DNA of 10,688 nucleotides from contig JAWXBZ010000050.1 in assembly GCA_034440375.1 (NCBI GenBank), forward strand, positions 1-10,688, in the 5' to 3' direction. This document shows positions 48-10,688 of the stretch, one piece after another. The DNA comes from Candidatus Eiseniibacteriota bacterium. GTDB taxonomy: Bacteria; Eisenbacteria; RBG-16-71-46; JABDJR01; JAWXBZ01. Below the pieces are notes generated by a model. It made no database searches. It was not told where the DNA came from and worked only from the letters and a program-made list of their open reading frames with translations. The translations under genes were made by a program, and so were the position numbers. Numbering within the stretch: position 1 is the first letter of the stretch; every line of letters starts with the position of its first letter.

Positions 48-156
48 TGTAAACAAAAGGCGACTCCAGTGTCAACTAATGCTTGATCCAGCAAGGCACT
101 GAAATTTATAGAGTTGTCGCGTTGACGTGAGCTTTCTGTCAACAATGATTGTCAAT
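48..156. promoter_or_regulatory. Cluster of TGTCAA-like boxes, candidate upstream activator sequences for a sigma54 EBP
   Basis: TGTAAAC 48-54, TGTCAAC 70-76 (22 bp apart), GTTGAC 121-126 and GTCAAC 138-143 (perfect inverted repeat, 11-bp spacer), TGTCAAT 150-156. They lie about 100-200 bp upstream of a -24/-12 motif. Confidence 0.5.
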
Positions 157-200
157 CATCCTGGCGCCTGAGAAGATTCTGACTGTTTGTCCCTCCAGCA

Positions 201-223
201 AATCAAGTCGTGATAATGAGTTA
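201..223 (+). promoter_or_regulatory. IHF-like binding site(s)
   Basis: AATCAAGTCGTGA (201-213) and TGATAATGAGTTA (211-223) partly match WATCAANNNNTTR. They sit between the putative UAS and the sigma54 promoter, which is the canonical position. Confidence 0.35.
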
Positions 224-251
224 GCAGAATCGGGGGCAGATCACCCACGTA

Positions 252-267
252 TGGCATATTGCCTGCT
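252..267 (+). promoter_or_regulatory. sigma54 (RpoN) -24/-12 promoter
   Basis: TGGCATATTGCCTGCT has GG at 253-254 and GC at 265-266 with exact N10 spacing, close to the consensus TGGCACGNNNNTTGCW. It is next to a sigma54 EBP gene. Predicted TSS is about 277-279. Confidence 0.75.
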
Positions 268-328
268 TTGCATGGGTTGCGACGCTGGACCAGTTGGTTC
301 AGGACAACTGAGTGAAGGGGGTGACGCA

Positions 329-403
329 ATGCATCGACTGGTTTTAGTGGGTCTCACAGCGATTGCCTTGATCAGCGGCCTTGGTGGAAAGGCTGGCTGG
401 TAA
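329..403 (+). CDS. 24-aa hydrophobic small protein MHRLVLVGLTAIALISGLGGKAGW
   Basis: SD AAGGGGGTGA (315-324) precedes ATG 329, and the stop TAA is at 401-403. It is bracketed by the sigma54 promoter and an intrinsic terminator. It has a basic N-terminus, a hydrophobic core and a GG-KAGW tail. It is the 3' part of ORF 149..403. Confidence 0.65.
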   Translation: MHRLVLVGLTAIALISGLGGKAGW

Positions 404-437
404 GGGGTAGCGATTCGCGAGATCTCGGGAAAGGGCA

Positions 438-469
438 GACGGCCACCTTCGGGTGGCCGTCGTTTTTTT
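438..469 (+). terminator. Rho-independent terminator of the small-peptide transcript
   Basis: Perfect 10-bp stem GACGGCCACC/GGTGGCCGTC with a cTTCGg tetraloop, followed by G and T7. Confidence 0.9.
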
Positions 470-526
470 GACAAAGCGCCATTTCGGGCACTTGAATGGC
501 ATGTTGTGGGACAATTGACAAAAAAA

Positions 527-556
527 TTGCAGGGACGACAACGTCCGGTTTATACT
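527..556 (+). promoter_or_regulatory. Putative sigma70-type promoter of the EBP gene
   Basis: TTGCAG (527-532)-N18-TATACT (551-556), downstream of the terminator and upstream of the CDS. Confidence 0.4.
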
Positions 557-586
557 ATGGATATTCGTTCTACTGATTGATTTTTA

Positions 587-2290
587 ATGACTTACAGGTT
601 TTTCGGAGGTGCCTTGGAATCTGGATTCGAACGGAACGAGGAGTCGCCTAAACCTGACAGTGATGACGATTTTTTTAACACCATCGAGGCAAACCTAAAC
701 GGCCGTGCCGACGAGCGTTCCGCGTTGCTCGATGATCGGGCGAGGTTGGATGAGCGCCTGCGTAATTTGACGGAAGAGAGATCCCGCCTTCGACTTCTGC
801 TCGATGTTTCCGGACGAATCAACTCAGTCCTCTGCACGAGAGATGTCCTCGATCGCGTCATGGATGCGGTCATTCAGGTTGCCGGTGCGCAGCGCGGGTT
901 CCTGGTCCTCCTCGACTCGCAACGCGAGCCGCATCTCGAGATCAGCCGAAATCTTGACGGCACCGAGCATGGGGCTGAGGAAACGTATCAAATCAGTCGC
1001 ACCATCCTGAATCGGGCCATCCAGAGCGGGCGGACCATTTTCGAAAACGATGCGATGAACAATCCTGCGTTCACCGGCTACAAGAGCGTTCGCGATCTCT
1101 CGCTTCGGACGGTGATCTGCCTTCCGCTGAGAATTGACCAGCGAGATCTCGGCGCCATCTACCTGGATAGCCGTAACGTGTCCGACATCATGACCCCGGA
1201 GGGTCAGGAACTGCTCGAGGCTTTTGCCTCGCAGGCATCCGTCGCCATTGCGAATGCCCTGGCGCACGATACGCTCAAGACATTTCAGAGCCGCCTTGAG
1301 GTTGAGAACCGCAGCTTGAAGCGCGCCCTCCGGTCCGAATTTTCGTTCGATTCGATTCTCGGACAGAGTGAGGCCATCCGCCGAATATTTGAAGTTCTCG
1401 GCAAGGTGGCCGACACCACGGTCACGGTTCTGATCCAGGGCGAAACCGGTACCGGCAAGGAAATGGTAGCCCGCGCCATTCATAACGCCAGCCCGCGCCG
1501 AGCCGCGCCATTCGTGCCGATCAACTGCGCGGCCATTCCCGACGCGCTGCTGGAGGGCGAACTGTTCGGCTACCGGCGAGGCGCTTTTACCGGCGCCACC
1601 GAGGACAAGGTCGGCCTGATCGAGACGGCCCACGGGGGTACCGTCCTGCTCGACGAAATCGGCGATATGCCGTTGACGCTGCAGACCAAGATTCTTCGCG
1701 TGGTTCAGGACAAGGAACTGCAGCGGCTCGGCGAATCATCGCCCCGAAAGGTAGATGTTCGCTGGCTCGCTGCCACGAACCGCGACCTGGACAAGGACAT
1801 TCAGACCGGGCGATTCCGCCAGGACCTCTACTACCGGCTGAATGTCGTCAGCATGGTCATGCCCCCGCTTCGGGATCGCCCCGAAGACATTCTGCTGCTC
1901 GCCGACCATTTCCTCCGGCAGTCGTCCGCCCGAATGAAGCGCGACAAGGTCTACCTCACGGCAGAGGGGCGCAGCTGTCTCCTGGCTTACGCATGGCCCG
2001 GCAATGTCCGCGAACTGGAAAACGCCCTCGAACGCGCCTGTGCACTGACCACGGAAGGACCCATCACCAAGGAGCTCCTCGTGCCGGCCGCTGCGGCAGC
2101 CATGGCGGACGAGTCAGCCGGTGGAACTTTGAAGGACAGGCTTCTTCGAGCCGAGCGCGTTGCCATCGATGCGGCGCTGCGCCGCAGCCAGGGAAACATC
2201 TCCCGGGCCGCGCAGGCACTCAGCGTGAGCCGCCAGCACCTGCACAACCGAATTCGCAAGCTCGAGATCGGCACGCCCGGCCGAATCTGA
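587..2290 (+). CDS. sigma54-dependent enhancer-binding protein (coiled coil-GAF-AAA+-Fis-type HTH; NifA/FhlA-like architecture)
   Basis: Walker A GETGTGKE, INCAAIP, ELFG..GAFTGA (1580-1597), Walker B LLDEIG, FRQDLYYRLNV, WPGNVRELEN and a C-terminal HTH (GNISRAAQALSVSRQHLHNRIRK). The N-terminal GAF includes ICLPLRIDQRDLGAIYLD. An alternative start is TTG 614 after GGAGGT at 605-610. Confidence 0.95.
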   Translation: MTYRFFGGALESGFERNEESPKPDSDDDFFNTIEANLNGRADERSALLDDRARLDERLRNLTEERSRLRLLLDVSGRINSVLCTRDVLDRVMDAVIQVAGAQRGFLVLLDSQREPHLEISRNLDGTEHGAEETYQISRTILNRAIQSGRTIFENDAMNNPAFTGYKSVRDLSLRTVICLPLRIDQRDLGAIYLDSRNVSDIMTPEGQELLEAFASQASVAIANALAHDTLKTFQSRLEVENRSLKRALRSEFSFDSILGQSEAIRRIFEVLGKVADTTVTVLIQGETGTGKEMVARAIHNASPRRAAPFVPINCAAIPDALLEGELFGYRRGAFTGATEDKVGLIETAHGGTVLLDEIGDMPLTLQTKILRVVQDKELQRLGESSPRKVDVRWLAATNRDLDKDIQTGRFRQDLYYRLNVVSMVMPPLRDRPEDILLLADHFLRQSSARMKRDKVYLTAEGRSCLLAYAWPGNVRELENALERACALTTEGPITKELLVPAAAAAMADESAGGTLKDRLLRAERVAIDAALRRSQGNISRAAQALSVSRQHLHNRIRKLEIGTPGRI

Positions 2291-2363: not shown

Positions 2364-3038
2364 TTATTCGCCGATCAGTGTCTTGATACCGGACCAGGTT
2401 GACGGGGCGACTGCCGTCGGGGCGCCGCAGGGGTTGTAGCCCGCTGCGCCGGCGAAGCCGGCCACGCCGAGGTGGGACGGAACCGCGAACGTGAGGTCGT
2501 CTTCACGTGACGAACAATCCGCAACCTTGGCGCGACCCGACACCGGGCGCGGGGTGACAAACATCTGCGAGGGGCCGTAGGCACCCATGTAGAAGTAGCC
2601 ACCGATCGCGATGACCGTGCGGGGCACGGCCGGTTCGGAACGGTCATTGTTGCAGTTGGCCAGCGTCCAGGTCAGCAGGTTGCTGCCACCTGAGTTCGGC
2701 CAGATGCCATCCGGGAACTGAAGATTGGCGCAGGAAACCCAGTTATAAACCTGGATCGACGTGGGGTACTGGATGCCCATTTCCATGCCGGCAATGCCGG
2801 TGGAGTCGGAGCCGTTGCAGGTGAGCAGATAGGTCCAGAAGAAATTGGCGGGGCTTGATTGGGGCGTCTGGTAGACCAGCGTCGGAGCCGTGACGCCCGG
2901 GTTACAAGGCGGCGAGGCGGCGCCGGGCGGCGTGATGTGCAGGGCGATACCGGCCTGCTTGTTGTCAAATGCCGCGGCGGAGCCGGTGAGGCCCATGACC
3001 AAGGCACCGAGAAGAACAGTCGAGACAAAACCCTTCAT
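2364..3038 (-). CDS. Secreted hypothetical protein (paralog 1), 224 aa, with C-terminal STWSGIKTLI tail
   Basis: Perfect SD TAAGGAGGT (3053-3045), Sec signal peptide MKGFVSTVLLGALVMGLTGSAAA, 6 Cys in the mature part, and clear similarity to 3338..3991. Confidence 0.9.
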   Translation of the reverse strand: MKGFVSTVLLGALVMGLTGSAAAFDNKQAGIALHITPPGAASPPCNPGVTAPTLVYQTPQSSPANFFWTYLLTCNGSDSTGIAGMEMGIQYPTSIQVYNWVSCANLQFPDGIWPNSGGSNLLTWTLANCNNDRSEPAVPRTVIAIGGYFYMGAYGPSQMFVTPRPVSGRAKVADCSSREDDLTFAVPSHLGVAGFAGAAGYNPCGAPTAVAPSTWSGIKTLIGE

Positions 3039-3337: not shown

Positions 3338-3991
3338 TTATCGGATCAGCGACTTGACGGCGCTCCAGGTGGCGTTTGCGACCGGTACGATGGTCGAGCA
3401 GGGGTTGTAACCCGGGCCGGTCCCGAAATCGATGTATCCGAGGGGCGAAGGGGTCTGACCCGTCAGGTCATCCTCCACCGAAAGGCAGCTGGCTACCTTG
3501 GCCCGCCCGTCTCCGGGCCTCGGAATCAGGGCAATGCGATCGGGGGTATAGGCACCGAGGTAGAAAAAACCCGCTACCGCCGGGTTGGGGCCCAGCTGGC
3601 AGTTGGAGACCGGGTCCCATGTGACCAGATTGCCACTATTGTTGAGCGGCCAGTTGTTCGAGGCAAATTCGAGGGTGGCGCACAGAGTCCAGTTGAAGAT
3701 GTCGACCCCGGCACTGGAAGCATCGTTGTACTGGATTCCGAACTGGCAGCCGGCGACTCCGACCGAGTCCGAAAAATTGCCCACACCGACATAGGCATGG
3801 TAGAACGAGCCGACGTTGCCGGCAACGCTGGCGTTGCGGCAGTCGGTCGGAACCTGCGTGCAGCCGTTCTTGGCCACAACCGGGCCGACGTGCATGAAGA
3901 TCTTGGCGTTTTGGTTGAGTCCCGCGAAGGACGGGCTGGCCACCAGCACAAGGCCGGCGGCGAACAGGAAGCTCCGGATCACCAGTTTCAT
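3338..3991 (-). CDS. Secreted hypothetical protein (paralog 2), 217 aa, with C-terminal ATWSAVKSLI tail
   Basis: Start reassigned from 4126 to ATG 3991 because SD GGAGG lies at 4005-4001 and the signal peptide MKLVIRSFLFAAGLVLVASPSFA begins there. It shares GIQY, NWxxCAxLxF, NLxTW, GxFYxGAYxP, GRAKVAxCxSxEDDLT and GYNPC with paralog 1. Confidence 0.9.
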   Translation of the reverse strand: MKLVIRSFLFAAGLVLVASPSFAGLNQNAKIFMHVGPVVAKNGCTQVPTDCRNASVAGNVGSFYHAYVGVGNFSDSVGVAGCQFGIQYNDASSAGVDIFNWTLCATLEFASNNWPLNNSGNLVTWDPVSNCQLGPNPAVAGFFYLGAYTPDRIALIPRPGDGRAKVASCLSVEDDLTGQTPSPLGYIDFGTGPGYNPCSTIVPVANATWSAVKSLIR

Positions 3992-4160
3992 TTCTTGATT
4001 CCTCCACCGTCGACACCGGCCGCATGACACGTACCGACTGCCTTGGTTCATGCCGGCAGGCCTGGTCGATCCAGTTCCCGGCACTCCATGGGTATCGGCG
4101 GTGAACTGGGGATTCTTTACCGTCACAAGGGCGGGCCGGGTCAGATGACCCGAAGTGCCG

Positions 4161-4239: not shown

Positions 4240-5670
4240 ATGGCCAAAAACATTACGCCGCGGGCGAACGACTACTCCCGCTGGTACAACGACGTCATCG
4301 CGCAGGCCCAGCTGGCGGAGCATGCGCCGGTAAAGGGGTGCATGGTGATCTGGCCGAACGGCTATGCCATCTGGGAGTGCATTCAGCAGACGCTCGACCG
4401 GATGTTCAAGGAGACGGGACACGTTAACGCCTACTTCCCGATGTTCATTCCGGAGTCGTTCATCAAGAAGGAAGCGCAGCACGTCGAGGGATTCTCGCCG
4501 GAACTGGCGGTGGTGACCCATGCCGGCGGTTCCAAGCTTGAGGAGCCACTGGTCGTCCGGCCAACATCGGAAACGATCATCTGGCACACCTACCGAAACT
4601 GGATCCAGTCATACCGTGATCTGCCACTGCTCATCAATCAGTGGGCCAATGTTGTTCGATGGGAGTTGCGCACACGCCTATTTCTCCGAACGACCGAGTT
4701 TCTGTGGCAGGAGGGGCACACCGCCCACGCCACCGCTCTTGAGGCACACGAGGAAACGATTCGGATGCTGAACGTGTATGCCACGTTTGCCGAGGAGTAC
4801 ATGGCGATGCCGGTACTCATGGGTCCGAAGACCGACTCTGAAAAATTTGCCGGGGCGGTTCGAACGTATTCGATCGAGGCCATGATGCAGGATCGCCGGG
4901 CACTCCAGGCCGGTACATCACACGACCTGGGCCAGAATTTTGCGAAGGCGTTCGACGTCACTTTCCAGGATGCCGAGGGGAAACGGGAGCATGTGTGGGC
5001 CACGAGCTGGGGCGTCAGCACGCGACTCGTTGGTGCGCTGATCATGTGCCACAGCGATGATGACGGGCTCGTGCTCCCGCCGCGGTTGGCCCCAATTCAG
5101 TGCGTGATCGTGCCGATCTGGATGAAGGATGAGCAGAAGGCCGAAATGACCGCTGTCGCGGAGGCGATTCGGGTCGAGCTTTCGGGTGCGGCCTCCGTAA
5201 AGGTCGACGCGCGCGACCAGTACAAGCCGGGGTGGAAGTTCGCCGAATGGGAATTGAGGGGCGTACCGATTCGAATCGAGGTGGGCCCGCGCGACCTGGC
5301 GGCAGGGCAGGTGACCCTGGTTCGGCGCGACACGAAGGTCAAGGAAACCGTTCCCCGCGAGGCCGTCCGCGAGCGCGTGCCGAAGTTGCTCGAGGAGATC
5401 CAGTCCGCCTTGTTCGAGCGGGCCCGGTCCTTCCGGGAGGCCAATTCGCACCGGCTCGACGATTACGAACTGTTCAAGTCACAGGTTGACGAACCGGGCG
5501 GATTCTACTGGTTGCCCTGGTGCGGATCGTCAGCGTGCGAGGCCCGCGTCAAGGAAGACACGAAGGCAACGATACGCTGCCTGCCGTTTGACGCACCGGA
5601 AGAGAAGGGCAGCTGCATCGTTTGCGGCGGCGCCTCCGAGCGGCGCGCTGTCTGGGCGAAGGCCTATTGA
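4240..5670 (+). CDS. proS: Proline--tRNA ligase, archaeal/eukaryotic type (no INS editing domain)
   Basis: Class II motifs [65 protein letters not shown]. It has an anticodon-binding domain ([12 protein letters not shown]), C-terminal Zn-binding cysteines (WCGSSAC...CIVC) and a terminal KAY. Confidence 0.98.
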
Positions 5671-5674
5671 TCGA

Positions 5675-7798
5675 TCAGGGAGGCGGTACTCCGGCCCGCA
5701 CCTGATTCAGCGTGATCAGGTAGTCCTTGGCGCGTGGGTCCATCGCGACCGCCCTTTCAAGGAAAGGCAGCGCCTCGCTCAGGCGGTTGGCCCGGCCGAG
5801 GAATCGGCCCAGGAAGAAGTAGTGGTCGGGTGAATTCTTGTCGAGCTCCAGGGCCTTCCGATAGGCCGTTTCGGCCGGATTGGCCAATCGCCCCTGTTCA
5901 CAGGCCCAGCCAAGCAACAGAAAGGACTTGGCCCGACCCGGATCGAGCTCCGTGGCCTGAACCAGCAGTTCAATCGCCTCCTTGATCTCCAGCTTCCGCA
6001 AATGTGCAATCGCGTCCCGTGTCCGCTCATCCACCAACCGCCTGGAAGCCTCATCCCCCGAGAGTCGCGTCAGCTGGTACTTTCGATTCTCGTCAAGTTC
6101 GAGGAGATAGGGAGCCCGGTCAGCCATCCTCTCGATGATTGCGCGATTGTCGGCGCCACGGTCGCGGACATAGAGAACCTGCCGTTCCGGTTCCGGCACG
6201 TTGTTTGGCGGTGAAAAGACCCATGAGTCAAATGGATGGCGCTGCAACGCCCCGGTGAAGATCAGGAGCTTCTGATCCGACGGAAGGCCGGCGACCCGGC
6301 GATAAGGTTCCTGAATGCGGTCGCTGAGTCGATGCAGTTCGATCGCCTGGACGCGACCGAATCCCACCCAGCCGACGAGTGTCAGTGCGACCACGAGCGC
6401 GGGCGTCAGCGACGAGAGGCCCGGCCGGCCCCCCCGGCCGATCCGTTCGTGGAGGCTCCGGGCACCGGCGACGGTGAGCAGGATGATGACCGGGAGGATT
6501 TCGTAGTACTTGACCGGACCGGTATCGCTGACGCCGAGCGAAAAATAAAACACGCTGCCGAGCGCCGTGACGATGAGGACGGCCCAGAGCGGTGCCAGGT
6601 CGCGGCGGCGGCTCCACAGAAGTGCCGCCACGACGAAGAGCCACGAGAGCGGCCACCCCAGCGACCAGAAATTGAGTCGGACCAGCGTTTGAAACACGTT
6701 CAGAAGGCCCGAGAGGGGTGTGCGCTCGGGCTGCCCCGGGACAGCCTCGCCGAAACCGAGGACACGGCCGCGATCGCCCTGGATCTCTGAGTATCCCGTC
6801 TTCAGGGGATTTCCCGTCAGCACCTGATTGACGCCGAGCAGAATGACCAGGAACAGGGAGGCCACGCCGAGTGCCGTTAACCAGGGTTTCAACGATTGGC
6901 CACGTCGGCGGAGCGCAAGAAACCAGGCGGCGGCGATCGGCAGGCCGATCATGAGACCGGTGTAGGGACGAATCAGGAAGGCCATGCCGGCGGCGAGGCC
7001 GGCAATCAATGCCGCGGAACTCCCTGTGAGCGAGCGATGGACGCAATAGGCGAAGAGAAGCAGCATCGTCAGGCAACTGGTATGCGACAGGAGCGTGGCT
7101 CCCGTGAATAGAAAGAACGGGGAGAGCAGCAGGAGCAGGGCCGCGGCGCGTGCCAGCCGCCTGGAGAAGTAAAATCCGGCCAGCCGGTAGACCAGGAGGA
7201 GATTGATCGCGGCCAGGACCGCCGGCACGAGTCGGGGCCACCCGGCCACGATTCCCGGGACGAGGAACAGCGGGTGGCCCGGAGGATATTTTCCGTACCA
7301 CTTGCCATTGTTGATGATGGAGACATTGTCGAAGAACTCGCGCAGTGGCTGCGAGTCGAGGAAGAGTCGGCCCCGCGAGAGCAGATCGGCCTGGAAGAGA
7401 TAGACGCGTTCGTCGTCGGTGAGCGGCTGATTCTGGAGGATGAGGTGACCGATGGCCAGAACGAGGCCCGCCCCGGCAATCAGGAGCCCGACGACGAATA
7501 ACCGTTCTGGAACGGCCTCGAGGACCTCGAGTCGGCGCCTCCAGAAGTCGGCGCCGAAGAGGTAAGCCAGCCCTAGCCCGACGAGGATGGCTGCCGGCAG
7601 GGCCAGTGCCAGGTATCGAAGATAAAAGGCCGCCTCGCCGCGCGGGAGACGGAAGAGAAACTCCAGTTCGTACTGGTGAAACGCGGAGGCACCCGCGCTC
7701 GCGCGTTCGAGCCAGAGAAATGCAGCGATGAAGGCGGCGCCGGCAAGGAGGAGCAGGGCGCCCAGACCCGGTCGTCGGTCAGCAGTTTGAGTCATCAT
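5675..7798 (-). CDS. GT-C fold (PMT/ArnT-like) polytopic membrane glycosyltransferase with C-terminal TPRs
   Basis: Many TM segments, an acidic TDDERVY motif in an early extramembrane loop, KYPPGHP and LIRPYT, and about 3 TPR-like repeats at the C-terminus (AETAYRKALELD, ALPFLERAVAMDP). The start overlaps the upstream stop (ATGA, 7798-7795). Confidence 0.8.
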   Translation of the reverse strand: MMTQTADRRPGLGALLLLAGAAFIAAFLWLERASAGASAFHQYELEFLFRLPRGEAAFYLRYLALALPAAILVGLGLAYLFGADFWRRRLEVLEAVPERLFVVGLLIAGAGLVLAIGHLILQNQPLTDDERVYLFQADLLSRGRLFLDSQPLREFFDNVSIINNGKWYGKYPPGHPLFLVPGIVAGWPRLVPAVLAAINLLLVYRLAGFYFSRRLARAAALLLLLSPFFLFTGATLLSHTSCLTMLLLFAYCVHRSLTGSSAALIAGLAAGMAFLIRPYTGLMIGLPIAAAWFLALRRRGQSLKPWLTALGVASLFLVILLGVNQVLTGNPLKTGYSEIQGDRGRVLGFGEAVPGQPERTPLSGLLNVFQTLVRLNFWSLGWPLSWLFVVAALLWSRRRDLAPLWAVLIVTALGSVFYFSLGVSDTGPVKYYEILPVIILLTVAGARSLHERIGRGGRPGLSSLTPALVVALTLVGWVGFGRVQAIELHRLSDRIQEPYRRVAGLPSDQKLLIFTGALQRHPFDSWVFSPPNNVPEPERQVLYVRDRGADNRAIIERMADRAPYLLELDENRKYQLTRLSGDEASRRLVDERTRDAIAHLRKLEIKEAIELLVQATELDPGRAKSFLLLGWACEQGRLANPAETAYRKALELDKNSPDHYFFLGRFLGRANRLSEALPFLERAVAMDPRAKDYLITLNQVRAGVPPP

Positions 7799-9906
7799 CG
7801 ATTTGCGTCGTTGGTTCCTTTGGGTGAAATTGAACCGGTGGCTCCGGTCCGTCCTAGAACAAGGGACCGTTCCCGCGCCCGGGACAATTCGGGTTCGGAG
7901 CCGCCCAGGGCCACCGCTCGACGATAGAGGGCCAGCGCGGCAGGATAGTCACCGATTCGTTCGGTCACAAGTGCCAGATTGTAAACCGTCGTAAAGTGAT
8001 TCGGCGAAAGCGCCGCGGCCGTCTCCAGATGTCGTCGGGAGTCTTCGTACCGCCCGGCCGCGGCGGCCATCGTGCCGAGCGCTGCCCAGGCGCCGGCCAG
8101 GTCGGGTTTCACCGTCACCGCGCGACGGAGCGCCGCTCCGGCCGCCGTGGTGTCCCCGAGCGCCTGCCAGGATAGACCTCGGCGGTAGGCAAGGGCTCCG
8201 GCGAATGACTCGCGTACCCCCGGAACCCGCTGTTCCATCTCCTCGAGCAGGCCGAGGGCGGCCCGCCATTGGCGACGGGAACGCTCGATCTCCTCCAGGT
8301 TGAACCAGGCCTCGGGGCGCCGCGGGTCAAGAGTCACGGCGCGTCGAAACCAGGATTCAGCCCCCGCGGCGTCCCCGGCATTGAGTGCGAGCCGACCCAG
8401 GTTGTTGGCCGGCTCCGCCAGGTTGGGCGCGATGGCGACGGCCTCCTCGAACTCACGACGGGCGAGGCTGGCTTCGCCACGCTTGTAATGAATGGTTCCG
8501 ACGAGGTTATGCATGTGCGCCCGGGAGGGCGTCGTATCGATCAGCGGAAAGGCGGCGAGCACCAGAAAGGATGCCACGACCATGATTGCAGGGAGCGCGG
8601 CGGTGAGAGGACGCCGGCGCGCCACGTTCATGAGGTCGGCAAGGCCCACGCCGGCCGCCGGCAACAGGACGGCCACGAGCGGCAGCCGGTAGCGGTCGGT
8701 GACGAAGAAAAACGCCACCGAGAGGATGAGGGCGGCGGCGACGGCGATCAGCAGACGGCCGGCCGGTTCACGCCCGCGCCGCAGAAATCCCCATGCCGCC
8801 AGGGGAAGTATCAGAAGAAAACCCGGAAGAATGCGCAGGATGGGAACACGCGCCCGAAACCAGGCCTGGTCATAATGATTGGGGATCTCGAGATCATTCA
8901 GGACATAGAGAATTTTGCGTGCCGTAAGGGCGGCGGCGTCAATCGGCGCAGCGGCCCACCAGGAGAGGCCGCGGTTCTGCCAGTAGCTCGACGCCGCGGC
9001 CGGTCCGGCCGGCCGGCCGAGCCCCCTGGATGCCATCTCGCGGGCGCTGACCACGAGCCCGTCGGGATCATTGAGCAGTGGCTCGCCGGGCGGAAGGTGA
9101 AAGGTGCCGTCGGCCAGCGCGTTGTTGCCGATGAAGAAGTTGATCCCGCCATTGGCCGAGATCAAGACCCAATCGCCCGACTCGGCCCGATTGCGCAGCG
9201 TGATCGGAAGGATCACCAACGAAAGGCCAAGCGCGAACGCCAGCGCGCCCCGCCGGGCCGAGGGCGGGGTGCGGCCGGTCAGCACGAGGAAGACCAGCGC
9301 CGCCAGTCCGGCCAGAAGTGTATTCGGCTGTGCCAGCGCAGCGAAGCCGGCGAACGATCCCGCCATGCCGGCCACCATGGCATCGTTCTTGCCGGTGGGC
9401 GAGGACATCCGCGCAACGAGTAGCCATAGCATCCCCTGGATAAAGAGCAGCGACCAGGCGATCGAAAGCAATTCCCCCTCGAAAAAGACGCGGGGACCAT
9501 ATCCGGCAGCAAGGAGTCCGGCGGCGAGGCCGGCGGTGCTTCCGGCCAGCCGCCGTGCCGTGTCCCAGGCCAGGAGAGCCCCAATCGCGCCGGCCATGAA
9601 CTGAATCCATCGGGCCAGTTCAAGCTGGCCGATTTCCGCGCCCACCAGGGCCAGGTAGGCGGAGTACAGGGGAGCCTGGAAGTAGGCCTCTCCGCGTGGC
9701 GCCAACCACCCGTCGAGACGCAGTCTCCCGGCCAGTTCAAGGTACTGCGCGGCATCCCCGGTCAGTTCGTTGAAGAGGACGAGGTCGCCGGCCTGCCGGA
9801 CGTACAACCAGCGGATGGCCACGGCGAGCAGGGCCACGAGTGCGGGCACCCAGAGCGGGATTCGAGTGGTGTCCGCCGGCTCGCCGGTTCCGGATGGCTT
9901 GGTCAT
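7795..9906 (-). CDS. GT-C fold (PMT/ArnT-like) membrane glycosyltransferase with extended C-terminal TPR region, about 703 aa
   Basis: Start reassigned to ATG 9906 (MTKPSGTG...), because the upstream 219 codons overlap xdhC on the other strand. Motifs include GDAAQY, YFQAPLY, QPN, NGGINFFIGNN, DRYRLP and about 5-6 TPR-like repeats (AEPANNLG, PEAWFNL, AGAWAALG, TVYNLA). Confidence 0.82.
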   Translation of the reverse strand: MTKPSGTGEPADTTRIPLWVPALVALLAVAIRWLYVRQAGDLVLFNELTGDAAQYLELAGRLRLDGWLAPRGEAYFQAPLYSAYLALVGAEIGQLELARWIQFMAGAIGALLAWDTARRLAGSTAGLAAGLLAAGYGPRVFFEGELLSIAWSLLFIQGMLWLLVARMSSPTGKNDAMVAGMAGSFAGFAALAQPNTLLAGLAALVFLVLTGRTPPSARRGALAFALGLSLVILPITLRNRAESGDWVLISANGGINFFIGNNALADGTFHLPPGEPLLNDPDGLVVSAREMASRGLGRPAGPAAASSYWQNRGLSWWAAAPIDAAALTARKILYVLNDLEIPNHYDQAWFRARVPILRILPGFLLILPLAAWGFLRRGREPAGRLLIAVAAALILSVAFFFVTDRYRLPLVAVLLPAAGVGLADLMNVARRRPLTAALPAIMVVASFLVLAAFPLIDTTPSRAHMHNLVGTIHYKRGEASLARREFEEAVAIAPNLAEPANNLGRLALNAGDAAGAESWFRRAVTLDPRRPEAWFNLEEIERSRRQWRAALGLLEEMEQRVPGVRESFAGALAYRRGLSWQALGDTTAAGAALRRAVTVKPDLAGAWAALGTMAAAAGRYEDSRRHLETAAALSPNHFTTVYNLALVTERIGDYPAALALYRRAVALGGSEPELSRARERSLVLGRTGATGSISPKGTNDANR

Positions 9907-9917
9907 GAGATGTGGTG

Positions 9918-9947
9918 AGTATAGAAATCGCCCCCGCCGAGGGTCAA
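9918..9947 (-). promoter_or_regulatory. sigma70-type promoter for the glycosyltransferase operon
   Basis: Minus strand TTGACC (9947-9942)-N18-TATACT (9923-9918), with only 11 nt between the -10 box and ATG 9906. Confidence 0.6.
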
Positions 9948-10026
9948 ACGGCAGGCCGTCCCCTGGGTTAGAATTTGCGCCGTGTGTCGCGCTCGGCGGT
10001 GACCAGTTCAACCAGGAATCGATTTC

Positions 10027-10688
10027 ATGCTTGAATTTCATCGCACGCTGCTGACGCTGCTCGAAGGTGGGCAACGCGTGGCGGTGGCCACCATCGTCGA
10101 GGCGCGTGGCTCGACGCCCCAGCGCGAGGGGGGGCGGATCATCGTGGCCGAGGATGGCCGCACCTGGTTCACCATCGGCGGTGGTGCCTTCGAGGCGCTG
10201 GTCATCGATGATGCGAGGACCTGCCTCCGTGAAAGCAAATCCGAACTCAAGACCTACTCGCTTCACGAGTCCGGCGAGGAAGCGTTGGGGATGGCCTGCG
10301 GCGGGCGAGCCCAGGTGTTCATCGAGGTGTCGGGACTTGTCGAAAATCTGCTCGTCTTCGGTGCGGGTCATGTCGGCCGGGCGCTCGCCCGGTTGGCCGC
10401 CGGGGTCGGCTTCGGCATCACCGTGGTCGATGACCGTTCCGCCATGCTGGATGCGCCGGCATTTCCAGCCGGAACGCGTCTCGTCGAAACCGATCGACTC
10501 TTTCGCGAGGCGCTGCCGCCGATTGACGATCACTCCTATGTCGTCCTGGTCACCCGATGTCACGACACCGATGAGGCAGCTCTTCGGGCGCTGGCCGGCC
10601 AGCCATGGCGGTACCTTGGCATGATCGGCAGCCGCCGAAAGGTTCGCGTCGTGCTCGATCGACTACTGGAACAGGGGGTGCCGGCCGC
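10027..10688 (+). CDS. xdhC: XdhC/CoxF-family molybdenum-hydroxylase accessory protein (partial, runs off the right edge)
   Basis: Manual translation from ATG 10027 gives MLEFHRTLL...VAVATIVEARGSTPQREGGRIIV...TIGGGAFE...LGMACGG...LLVFGAGHVGRALARLA...VVDDR...VLVTRCHDTD...YLGMIGSRRK. AGGA lies at 10014-10017. It is absent from the ORF track because no stop occurs in the window. Confidence 0.93.
   Translation, partial: MLEFHRTLLTLLEGGQRVAVATIVEARGSTPQREGGRIIVAEDGRTWFTIGGGAFEALVIDDARTCLRESKSELKTYSLHESGEEALGMACGGRAQVFIEVSGLVENLLVFGAGHVGRALARLAAGVGFGITVVDDRSAMLDAPAFPAGTRLVETDRLFREALPPIDDHSYVVLVTRCHDTDEAALRALAGQPWRYLGMIGSRRKVRVVLDRLLEQGVPA

Follow-up and report, generated by a model that had tools for sequence, protein, structure and literature searches.

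We analyzed a contig of 10,688 nucleotides (JAWXBZ010000050.1) from Candidatus Eiseniibacteriota bacterium, which is the entire contig C50 of its source genome, G000, and is hereafter called the window. At its left end lie a gene for a 24-aa peptide behind a sigma54-type promoter and, directly downstream, a gene for a sigma54 enhancer-binding protein (EBP). Here we describe this pair, the evidence that the EBP activates the peptide gene, and the possible role of the peptide, whose C-terminal tail (G-K/R-A-G-W) recurs in relatives beside genes for MASE9 membrane sensors. The peptide unit comprises the following features.

252 to 267, plus strand: sigma54 -24/-12 promoter TGGCATATTGCCTGCT, with GG at 253-254 and GC at 265-266; predicted transcription start at about 278
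315 to 324, plus strand: Shine-Dalgarno (SD) sequence AAGGGGGTGA
329 to 403, plus strand: gene for the 24-aa peptide, 24 codons, with a hydrophobic core and the tail GKAGW at 386-400
438 to 469, plus strand: intrinsic terminator, a UUCG hairpin of 10 pairs at 438-461 followed by a T run (U run in the RNA)

The peptide gene and its conservation

The initial annotation had described a promoter, an SD sequence, a 24-codon open reading frame (ORF) and a UUCG terminator, and all four were present. The -24/-12 element, the candidate activator boxes upstream of it and a gene for RpoN in the genome together provide the sequence features expected of a sigma54 unit; the genome also codes for two IHF/HU-family proteins. 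Since 5 of the 44 strict sigma54-like sites in G000 are followed by an SD sequence and an ORF of 12-45 aa, a promoter-SD-ORF layout may arise by chance, and the unit was therefore taken as real for its conservation across relatives and not for its layout.

We compared 201 genomes of the class, whose families are denoted by f-numbers; G000 and G001 belong to different genera of f1. At the locus of the EBP orthologue in G001, a 22-aa hydrophobic ORF ended in GKAGW, and the 16 nt before its start codon were identical to those in the window; this G001 contig begins too close to the ORF for a promoter to be visible. A search with the back-translated tail and stop codon gave 154 matches in 86 of the 201 genomes, whereas the reversed control gave 3. 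All parts of the cassette together (sigma54 promoter, SD sequence and short ORF ending in G[KR][AS]GW) were detected in 38 of the 201, versus 0 for the reversed pattern. By family, these were 32/41 genomes of f9, 4/6 of f14 and 1/13 of f15, plus G000; the pattern was found in none of the 85 genomes of f10 and none of the 8 of f2. When promoter and SD sequence were searched without regard to the peptide, 30 loci were returned, five of which code for hydrophobic peptides of 22-24 aa ending in G[KR]AGW, and the f14 and f15 loci overlooked by the first pattern were recovered. Tandem copies of the peptide are found behind the promoter in f9 and at G001:C5.

Across 18 loci reached through EBP, promoter or MASE9 anchors, third codon positions of the tail varied and Lys and Arg were interchanged (AAG versus CGC); since the regular expression used for the tail fixed the residue classes K/R, A/S, G and W, this comparison indicates synonymous freedom and not residue invariance. 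A hydrophobic core was present in all 31 cassette peptides compared, with a Kyte-Doolittle maximum of 2.85 (11-residue window) in the peptide of the window. Together with the occurrence of the cassette in the 38 genomes, the codon-level variation bears out the initial call of a real ORF. These comparisons support a real, protein-coding peptide gene in a sigma54-type transcription unit, and by the same evidence the product fits a short precursor whose conserved terminal core is under coding constraint.

Pfam and NCBIfam scans assigned the peptide to no family and thus gave no homology to a known pheromone family. With the peptide as query, tblastn against G000 returned only low-complexity noise, and blastn against plasmids gave no match. 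An 84-codon frame open from TTG 149 was considered as the gene and rejected; relatives retain only its SD-led final 16-28 codons. In the ESM Atlas, residues 61-84 of this frame gave a best score of 0.84, which we treat as a lead only.

The enhancer-binding protein and the candidate activator sites

Downstream of the peptide unit, the following features belong to the EBP gene.

614 to 2290, plus strand: GAF-AAA+-HTH sigma54 EBP, 558 aa from TTG 614; frame open from ATG 587
1580 to 1597, plus strand: intact GAFTGA motif
2228 to 2251, plus strand: recognition helix SRQHLHNR
551 to 556: TATACT in the promoter region of the EBP

The domain scan revealed GAF, Sigma54_activat (PF00158, E 1e-69), lid and HTH_8 (PF02954) domains. 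The protein thus has the sigma54-interacting AAA+ domain with GAFTGA and the Fis-type HTH that define a sigma54 EBP, and its earlier description as a GAF-AAA+-HTH protein with an intact GAFTGA was verified by scan and sequence, with the start refined. TTG 614, at which the database protein and the orthologues begin, is most likely the translation start, rather than ATG 587. The protein scored below all NCBIfam cut-offs (NifA 371 versus 529, NorR 364 versus 476; FhlA also under).

The EBP adjoins the peptide gene in three families (f1, f14 and f15) and in both gene orders. It lies downstream of the peptide in 2/2 cases in f1, and directly upstream of the promoter, 223-258 nt away, in all five cassette-bearing genomes of f14 and f15, which were picked for having the cassette. 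The SRQHLH helix is common to the EBPs of f1, f2, f5, f9, f14 and f15; it was absent from the other EBP rows of G000 and from the five best EBP matches in f10. In the EBP tree, the f1, f2, f5 and f9 proteins formed one clade (95/96); the five f10 rows, whose Walker A motif lay outside the filter, were left out of the tree. The f14 and f15 proteins, later found by profile, had escaped an N-terminal EBP query at E 1e-30, and blanks of that query were therefore not read as absence. When metagenome and genome contigs were scanned with the EBP alignment, generic EBPs (34-56% identity in the best segments) dominated the results, and no usable locus of an orthologue emerged.

Twelve EBP genes of f2 and f9, none of which adjoins a peptide gene, bear an 18-bp palindrome before their own start. 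A position weight matrix (PWM) trained on only these 12 sites ranked the window promoter first among 381 sigma54-like sites of G000, with a score of 24.2 versus 13.5 for the next. Scores reached p<=0.05 against shuffles in 11/18 cassettes versus 3/25 other sigma54 promoters (Fisher 0.001, which is overstated since kin are not independent). The sites in the window are as follows.

48 to 65, plus strand: distal 18-bp palindromic box, candidate EBP site (PWM score 7.2)
70 to 87, plus strand: weak box with a good half-site (PWM score 3.0)
137 to 154, plus strand: main candidate EBP-type box (PWM score 17.0), 115 nt 5' of the -24 element
201 to 213, plus strand: IHF-like site
469 to 486, plus strand: EBP-type box over the putative promoter region of the EBP itself (PWM score 8.6)
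516 to 533: weaker EBP-type copy (PWM score 4.5)

The repeat boxes of the initial annotation were indeed present, and are refined here to three imperfect palindromes of 18 bp (48-65, 70-87 and 137-154). At a similar distance (117-118 nt), most cassettes of f1 and f9 also have a box. The IHF-like site, also claimed earlier, agrees at 12 of 13 positions with the IHF consensus, and presumably binds IHF.

Because the adjacency is conserved in both orders and the palindromic site is shared, this EBP is most likely the activator of the peptide promoter. Several observations tell against so close a pairing. The EBP is unlinked from the peptide in f9 (5/5 EBP loci), f2 (7) and f5; f2 retains the EBP in 7/8 genomes with no cassette detected in any of the 8, and the strict box-plus-promoter pattern occurred in 0/5 f2 genomes; and the tree leaves the f14 clade and the f15 protein unplaced relative to the f1/f2/f5/f9 clade. 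The initial annotation had proposed that a promoter and short ORF should be sought beside orthologous EBPs, and these were found in f1 (the ORF), f14 and f15, but not at the unlinked loci of f2, f9 and f5. It had further proposed an activator dedicated to the peptide; the activator part stands as likely, whereas dedication to the peptide alone is improbable, as f2 keeps the EBP without a detected cassette. The same f2 and f9 observations, and the many EBPs of G000 (roughly 19 sigma54 activators), would also fit a real peptide driven by another of these activators, with the adjacency incidental. This is quite improbable given both gene orders in three families, the shared box and the joint absence of helix and cassette in f10.

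In f14 and f15, a protein of 1,080-1,200 aa precedes the EBP (L343-L347), and one follows it in G012 (L272). The three such neighbors that were scanned (two from f14, one from G012) were Ser/Thr kinase-TPR proteins. The cassette is followed by a short lipoprotein-like gene at 4/5 of the f14/f15 loci; HFS occurs in three of these and a GW tail in none.

Carriers of the tail and their link to MASE9 sensors

The G-K/R-A-G-W tail was found on three kinds of carrier: the sigma54 cassettes, micro-ORFs and lipoproteins. The micro-ORFs code for 16-47 aa and lie behind a conserved gene of ~250 aa and a leader with AGCGAAGC repeats. The lipoproteins, of 160-240 aa, end in HFSxY-x(2-6)-GKAGW; among 56 lipoprotein homologues, 45 end in [KR][APS]GW, the search profile having included the tail. 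Their model (predicted local distance difference test, pLDDT, 82.7) matched the ZU5 domain of ankyrin (E 8e-5) and the GAIN domain (E 5e-4) in CD97, an adhesion G-protein-coupled receptor (GPCR), and an H-F/L-S/T motif stands just before the tail, so that both fold and motif of ZU5/GAIN proteins were found. G000 holds all three kinds (C50, C16, C108 and C127), the C127 carrier having a C-terminal extension beyond the motif. Two micro-ORF precursors, L189 and L244, contain two or three copies of the tail. Because these multi-core precursors and the lipoproteins bear it, the sequences show the tail to be a portable module.

The repeated K-x-x-W cores of L189 recall streptide precursors, and type I toxins resemble such short hydrophobic ORFs. 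A RiPP-like (ribosomally synthesized and post-translationally modified peptide) precursor cross-linked between Lys and Trp in the manner of streptide, or a type I toxin, is nevertheless scarcely credible here: no ORF of at least 250 aa in the 33 loci scanned carries the CxxxCxxC radical-SAM motif, the Lys is swapped for Arg or absent, and an activator-dependent sigma54 promoter and lipoprotein carriers are unlike type I toxins.

The gene 3' of the micro-ORF on C16 codes for a MASE9-HD-GYP protein, and the genes beside tail-bearing ORFs code for MASE9 proteins above the Pfam cut-off (PF20972). At 30 tail-anchored loci, a MASE9 gene followed 22/22 micro-ORFs and 3/8 lipoproteins. Anchoring on MASE9 gave 86 matches in 54 of 61 genomes, of which 30 were examined and sorted into types partly by eye. 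A peptide with a GKAGW-like tail preceded 8/8 HD-GYP genes, and a tailed lipoprotein preceded five of the seven stand-alone genes. At two MASE9-kinase loci (L236 and L267), a ZU5-like lipoprotein lies downstream instead. At L228, three tailed lipoproteins (GKAGW, GKAGW, GKPGW) are clustered around a single stand-alone MASE9 gene.

The linkage extends to three phyla. In a second phylum (G201), all 20 MASE9 matches were fetched and 19 had upstream DNA; 16 of these 19 have an SD-led hydrophobic ORF with Trp within the last two residues. A record from Natranaerobius (Bacillota) has the same order of gene, leader, peptide and MASE9/HD-GYP, with Trp near the end of the peptide. In that record (L298:2298-3589), a plasmid, the MASE9/HD-GYP gene is split by a frameshift and DUF5317 follows; the peptide ORF at ~2167-2253 is unannotated. 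The MASE9 search detected the controls Thermus thermophilus and Thermotoga maritima. In 5 single genomes of other phyla, no MASE9 was found.

At 4/14 MASE9 loci in the phylum of G202 (L301, L302, L307 and L310), the ORF ahead of the MASE9 gene ends in Trp repeats (NIVWG, VIWTD, CVVWG). These ORFs look subtilisin-like by eye and are possibly a further route of Trp-peptide delivery; two of the loci also have a separate short Trp ORF. At L188 (G000:C16:17282-19660), L192-L216, L298 and L355-L374, a conserved gene of 220-250 aa, Pfam-less and LeuA-allosteric-like by its Atlas name, is followed by the leader and then MASE9-HD-GYP. The leader contains AGCGAAGC repeats, an anti-SD sequence and pairing across the micro-ORF; gene and leader may represent an RNA-binding protein with its target.

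Such a leader, together with the terminal position of the Trp codon and a predicted transcript of the window unit that folds more stably than shuffled sequences (z -4.4 including the terminator, -2.3 excluding it), would suit a cis-acting leader or attenuator peptide (Trp-sensing, like TrpL or TnaC) or a structured small RNA, the peptide product being irrelevant. However, the EBP lies upstream in f14 and f15, the genes downstream vary by family, tandem copies occur, the lipoproteins end in the same tail, and the Lys/Arg swaps alter up to three bases. Rfam at gathering score matched neither the window nor 11 related loci. We consider a cis-acting role improbable.

G000 has three MASE9 genes, for a MASE9-HD-GYP phosphodiesterase of cyclic di-GMP (c-di-GMP), a MASE9 histidine kinase and a stand-alone MASE9. 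A putative receptor gene is thus linked to leader-type micro-ORFs and many lipoproteins, but was not seen in the fetched flanks of the sigma54 cassettes. Stand-alone MASE9 genes at G000:C215:6984-7817, L249 and L266, and one tailed lipoprotein gene (G000:C127:7347), have sigma54-like promoters of their own, which were absent from the top 25 hits of the EBP matrix.

The model of MASE9 (A3, m1289dc23f36c; pLDDT 93.9) has the fold of an energy-coupling factor (ECF) S-component. In the structure comparison, NikM was best (Z 14.8, 189 residues at 3.4 A), FolT, RibU, BioY and ThiT gave Z 11-13.5, and unrelated rows gave Z 5.9 or less. Foldseek returned no match at E<=0.001 with this model, although its top ten rows were ECF S-components. 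ECF S-components bind small ligands in an outward pocket; the modeled likeness in fold shows no function. Galperin and Chou (10.1101/2021.11.05.467447) described MASE9 as a sensor, and predicted intramembrane ligand binding without naming a ligand; MASE9-HD-GYP phosphodiesterases (Pfam PF20972) include TM1467 and HdgA. The main text of that paper does not contain the word "peptide", and its passages on MASE9 do not state the S-component fold or mention MASE9 kinases and stand-alone MASE9.

A proposed peptide signaling system

Because relatives repeatedly encode the tail beside this orphan sensor, the peptide is probably a signal. On balance, we lean towards the view that the window holds the signal-producing unit of an undescribed peptide system, in which an EBP-switched, exported, Trp-tailed peptide would act through MASE9 sensors. 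The initial annotation had suggested a signaling or regulatory peptide, and a signaling role is the best reading of the comparative evidence; the large tail family and its tie to MASE9 had escaped it.

In the proposed mechanism, the EBP would bind the 18-bp palindromes that lie 115-200 nt before the promoter, with IHF bending helping to open it, and would probably also bind the box over its own promoter (possible autoregulation). A candidate partner for the GAF-domain input is the Ser/Thr kinase-TPR protein encoded next to the EBP in f14, f15 and f5. The hydrophobic N-terminus would take the peptide into or across the inner membrane, and the tail would end up exposed at the outer face or be cleaved off there. 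There it may serve as ligand of MASE9 membrane sensors, the c-di-GMP phosphodiesterase included, as gene context and fold suggest. The micro-ORF 5' of the MASE9-HD-GYP gene would also supply the tail, and so would the ZU5/GAIN-fold lipoproteins, in which it stands behind the HF|S motif like a tethered agonist; the sigma54 cassette would be an inducible additional source of ligand.

Export is the weakest step of this proposal, because most cassette peptides have no charged n-region: 29/31 carry no K/R in the first five residues, and of the two that do, one has an over-long start call. This and the following points weigh against the signaling view. A loose signal-peptidase-like site occurs in just 20/31 cassette peptides, a count that has no control. 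An upstream peptide was present at only 1/15 MASE9-kinase loci, and in the second phylum 2/19 loci have a micro-ORF without any Trp, and at 1/19 the Trp stands six residues from the C-terminus. A single query for the kinase-TPR partner found none in G000. No MASE9 lay in the fetched flanks (~4-6 kb) of the 13 sigma54 cassettes checked (L217-L235, L343-L347), and the link between the window peptide and MASE9 therefore rests on the identical tail and the three MASE9 genes elsewhere in G000.

A hydrophobic core without a charged n-region and cassettes that do not adjoin MASE9 would also fit a single-pass small membrane protein, induced by the EBP and left intact, that regulates a non-MASE9 membrane partner, or a GKAGW that acts as a tag for sorting, processing or a protease such as Lon, in neither case an intercellular signal. 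A Lon gene follows the cassette in several f9 loci, and the lipoproteins with the same tail could use it for sorting. But Lon is no neighbor in f1, f14 or f15, the two to three tail copies of L189 and L244 suit released cores better than a terminal tag, and the tail is linked to MASE9 in three phyla. We judge such a membrane protein or tag rather unlikely, and continue to prefer the exported signal.

More speculatively, and with limited credence on present comparisons, MASE9 could be a receptor class derived from S-components for short Trp-tailed peptides, serving a cross-phylum system from peptide to c-di-GMP or from peptide to kinase. It would be fed by leader micro-ORFs, by ZU5/GAIN lipoproteins with Stachel-like tails, by secreted proteases with Trp-repeat tails and by the EBP-driven sigma54 cassette, and would amount to a quorum-type circuit of uncultured diderms and a prokaryotic parallel of the tethered agonism of adhesion GPCRs.

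By analogy, the system would work like peptide pheromone signaling, with no part belonging to a known pheromone family. As in ComC/ComD, AgrD/AgrC and ComX/ComP of the Bacillota, the precursor is short and combines a hydrophobic or helical N-terminus with a small conserved core, a putative membrane receptor is fused to a kinase or enzyme, and an induction loop is possible. Unlike those systems, it has sigma54 and a GAF-EBP with no response regulator, a proposed receptor of S-component fold, a c-di-GMP phosphodiesterase as output and lipoproteins that also bear the core, and no dedicated exporter or processing gene was seen beside the cassettes. Phr/PapR and SHP/ComS of the RRNPP group likewise have precursors of 20-45 aa whose conserved part is the C-terminal 5-8 residues; here, in contrast, the proposed receptor is a membrane sensor and not a cytoplasmic TPR regulator, and the neighbor is a sigma54 EBP. 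The lipoproteins, with their ZU5/GAIN fold and HF[S/T] just before the tail, resemble adhesion-GPCR GAIN/Stachel and ZU5/FIIND proteins, and bacterial ZU5 autopeptidases exist (PMC3482391). They differ from GAIN/Stachel in that putative ligand and receptor are encoded by separate genes, and any cleavage is putative; the window peptide has no ZU5 domain. The EBP shares its GAF-AAA+-HTH layout, GAFTGA and palindromic upstream sites with NifA, NorR and FhlA, but falls under their cut-offs, has a distinct recognition helix and has a micro-ORF as its likely target.

Literature searches, which covered neither subscription articles nor supplementary files on bioRxiv such as the MASE9 alignment (Fig. 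S5), returned no description of this system and only unrelated mentions of GKAGW; DUF5317 gave no literature match. Together with the lack of a family for the peptide, this agrees with the initial view that the system had not been described. With this proposal, an orphan sensor domain of several phyla gains a candidate ligand. MASE9 occurs in the cultured organisms Thermus thermophilus and Thermotoga maritima, and Natranaerobius has the whole peptide-MASE9-HD-GYP module; the hypothesis is therefore open to experiment. If true, it would mean that a peptide controls c-di-GMP turnover by way of a transporter-derived fold, that a peptide signal is under sigma54 control, and that bacteria have a parallel to GAIN/Stachel signaling. 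Should the ligand idea prove wrong, the locus would still give a widespread family of unannotated microproteins a likely activator and a candidate binding site.

The remainder of the window is as follows. Two paralogous secreted proteins with no Pfam hit and a TW(S/G)xxKxL end are encoded on the minus strand (2364-3038 and 3338-4126), and one of these genes is syntenic with the EBP and prolyl-tRNA synthetase genes in G001. Between the convergent EBP and secreted-protein genes, a 13-pair hairpin with A/T-run flanks (2315-2344) is probably a bidirectional terminator. Positions 4240-10688 hold ordinary genes for prolyl-tRNA synthetase, two PMT/TPR membrane glycosyltransferase-like proteins and XdhC.

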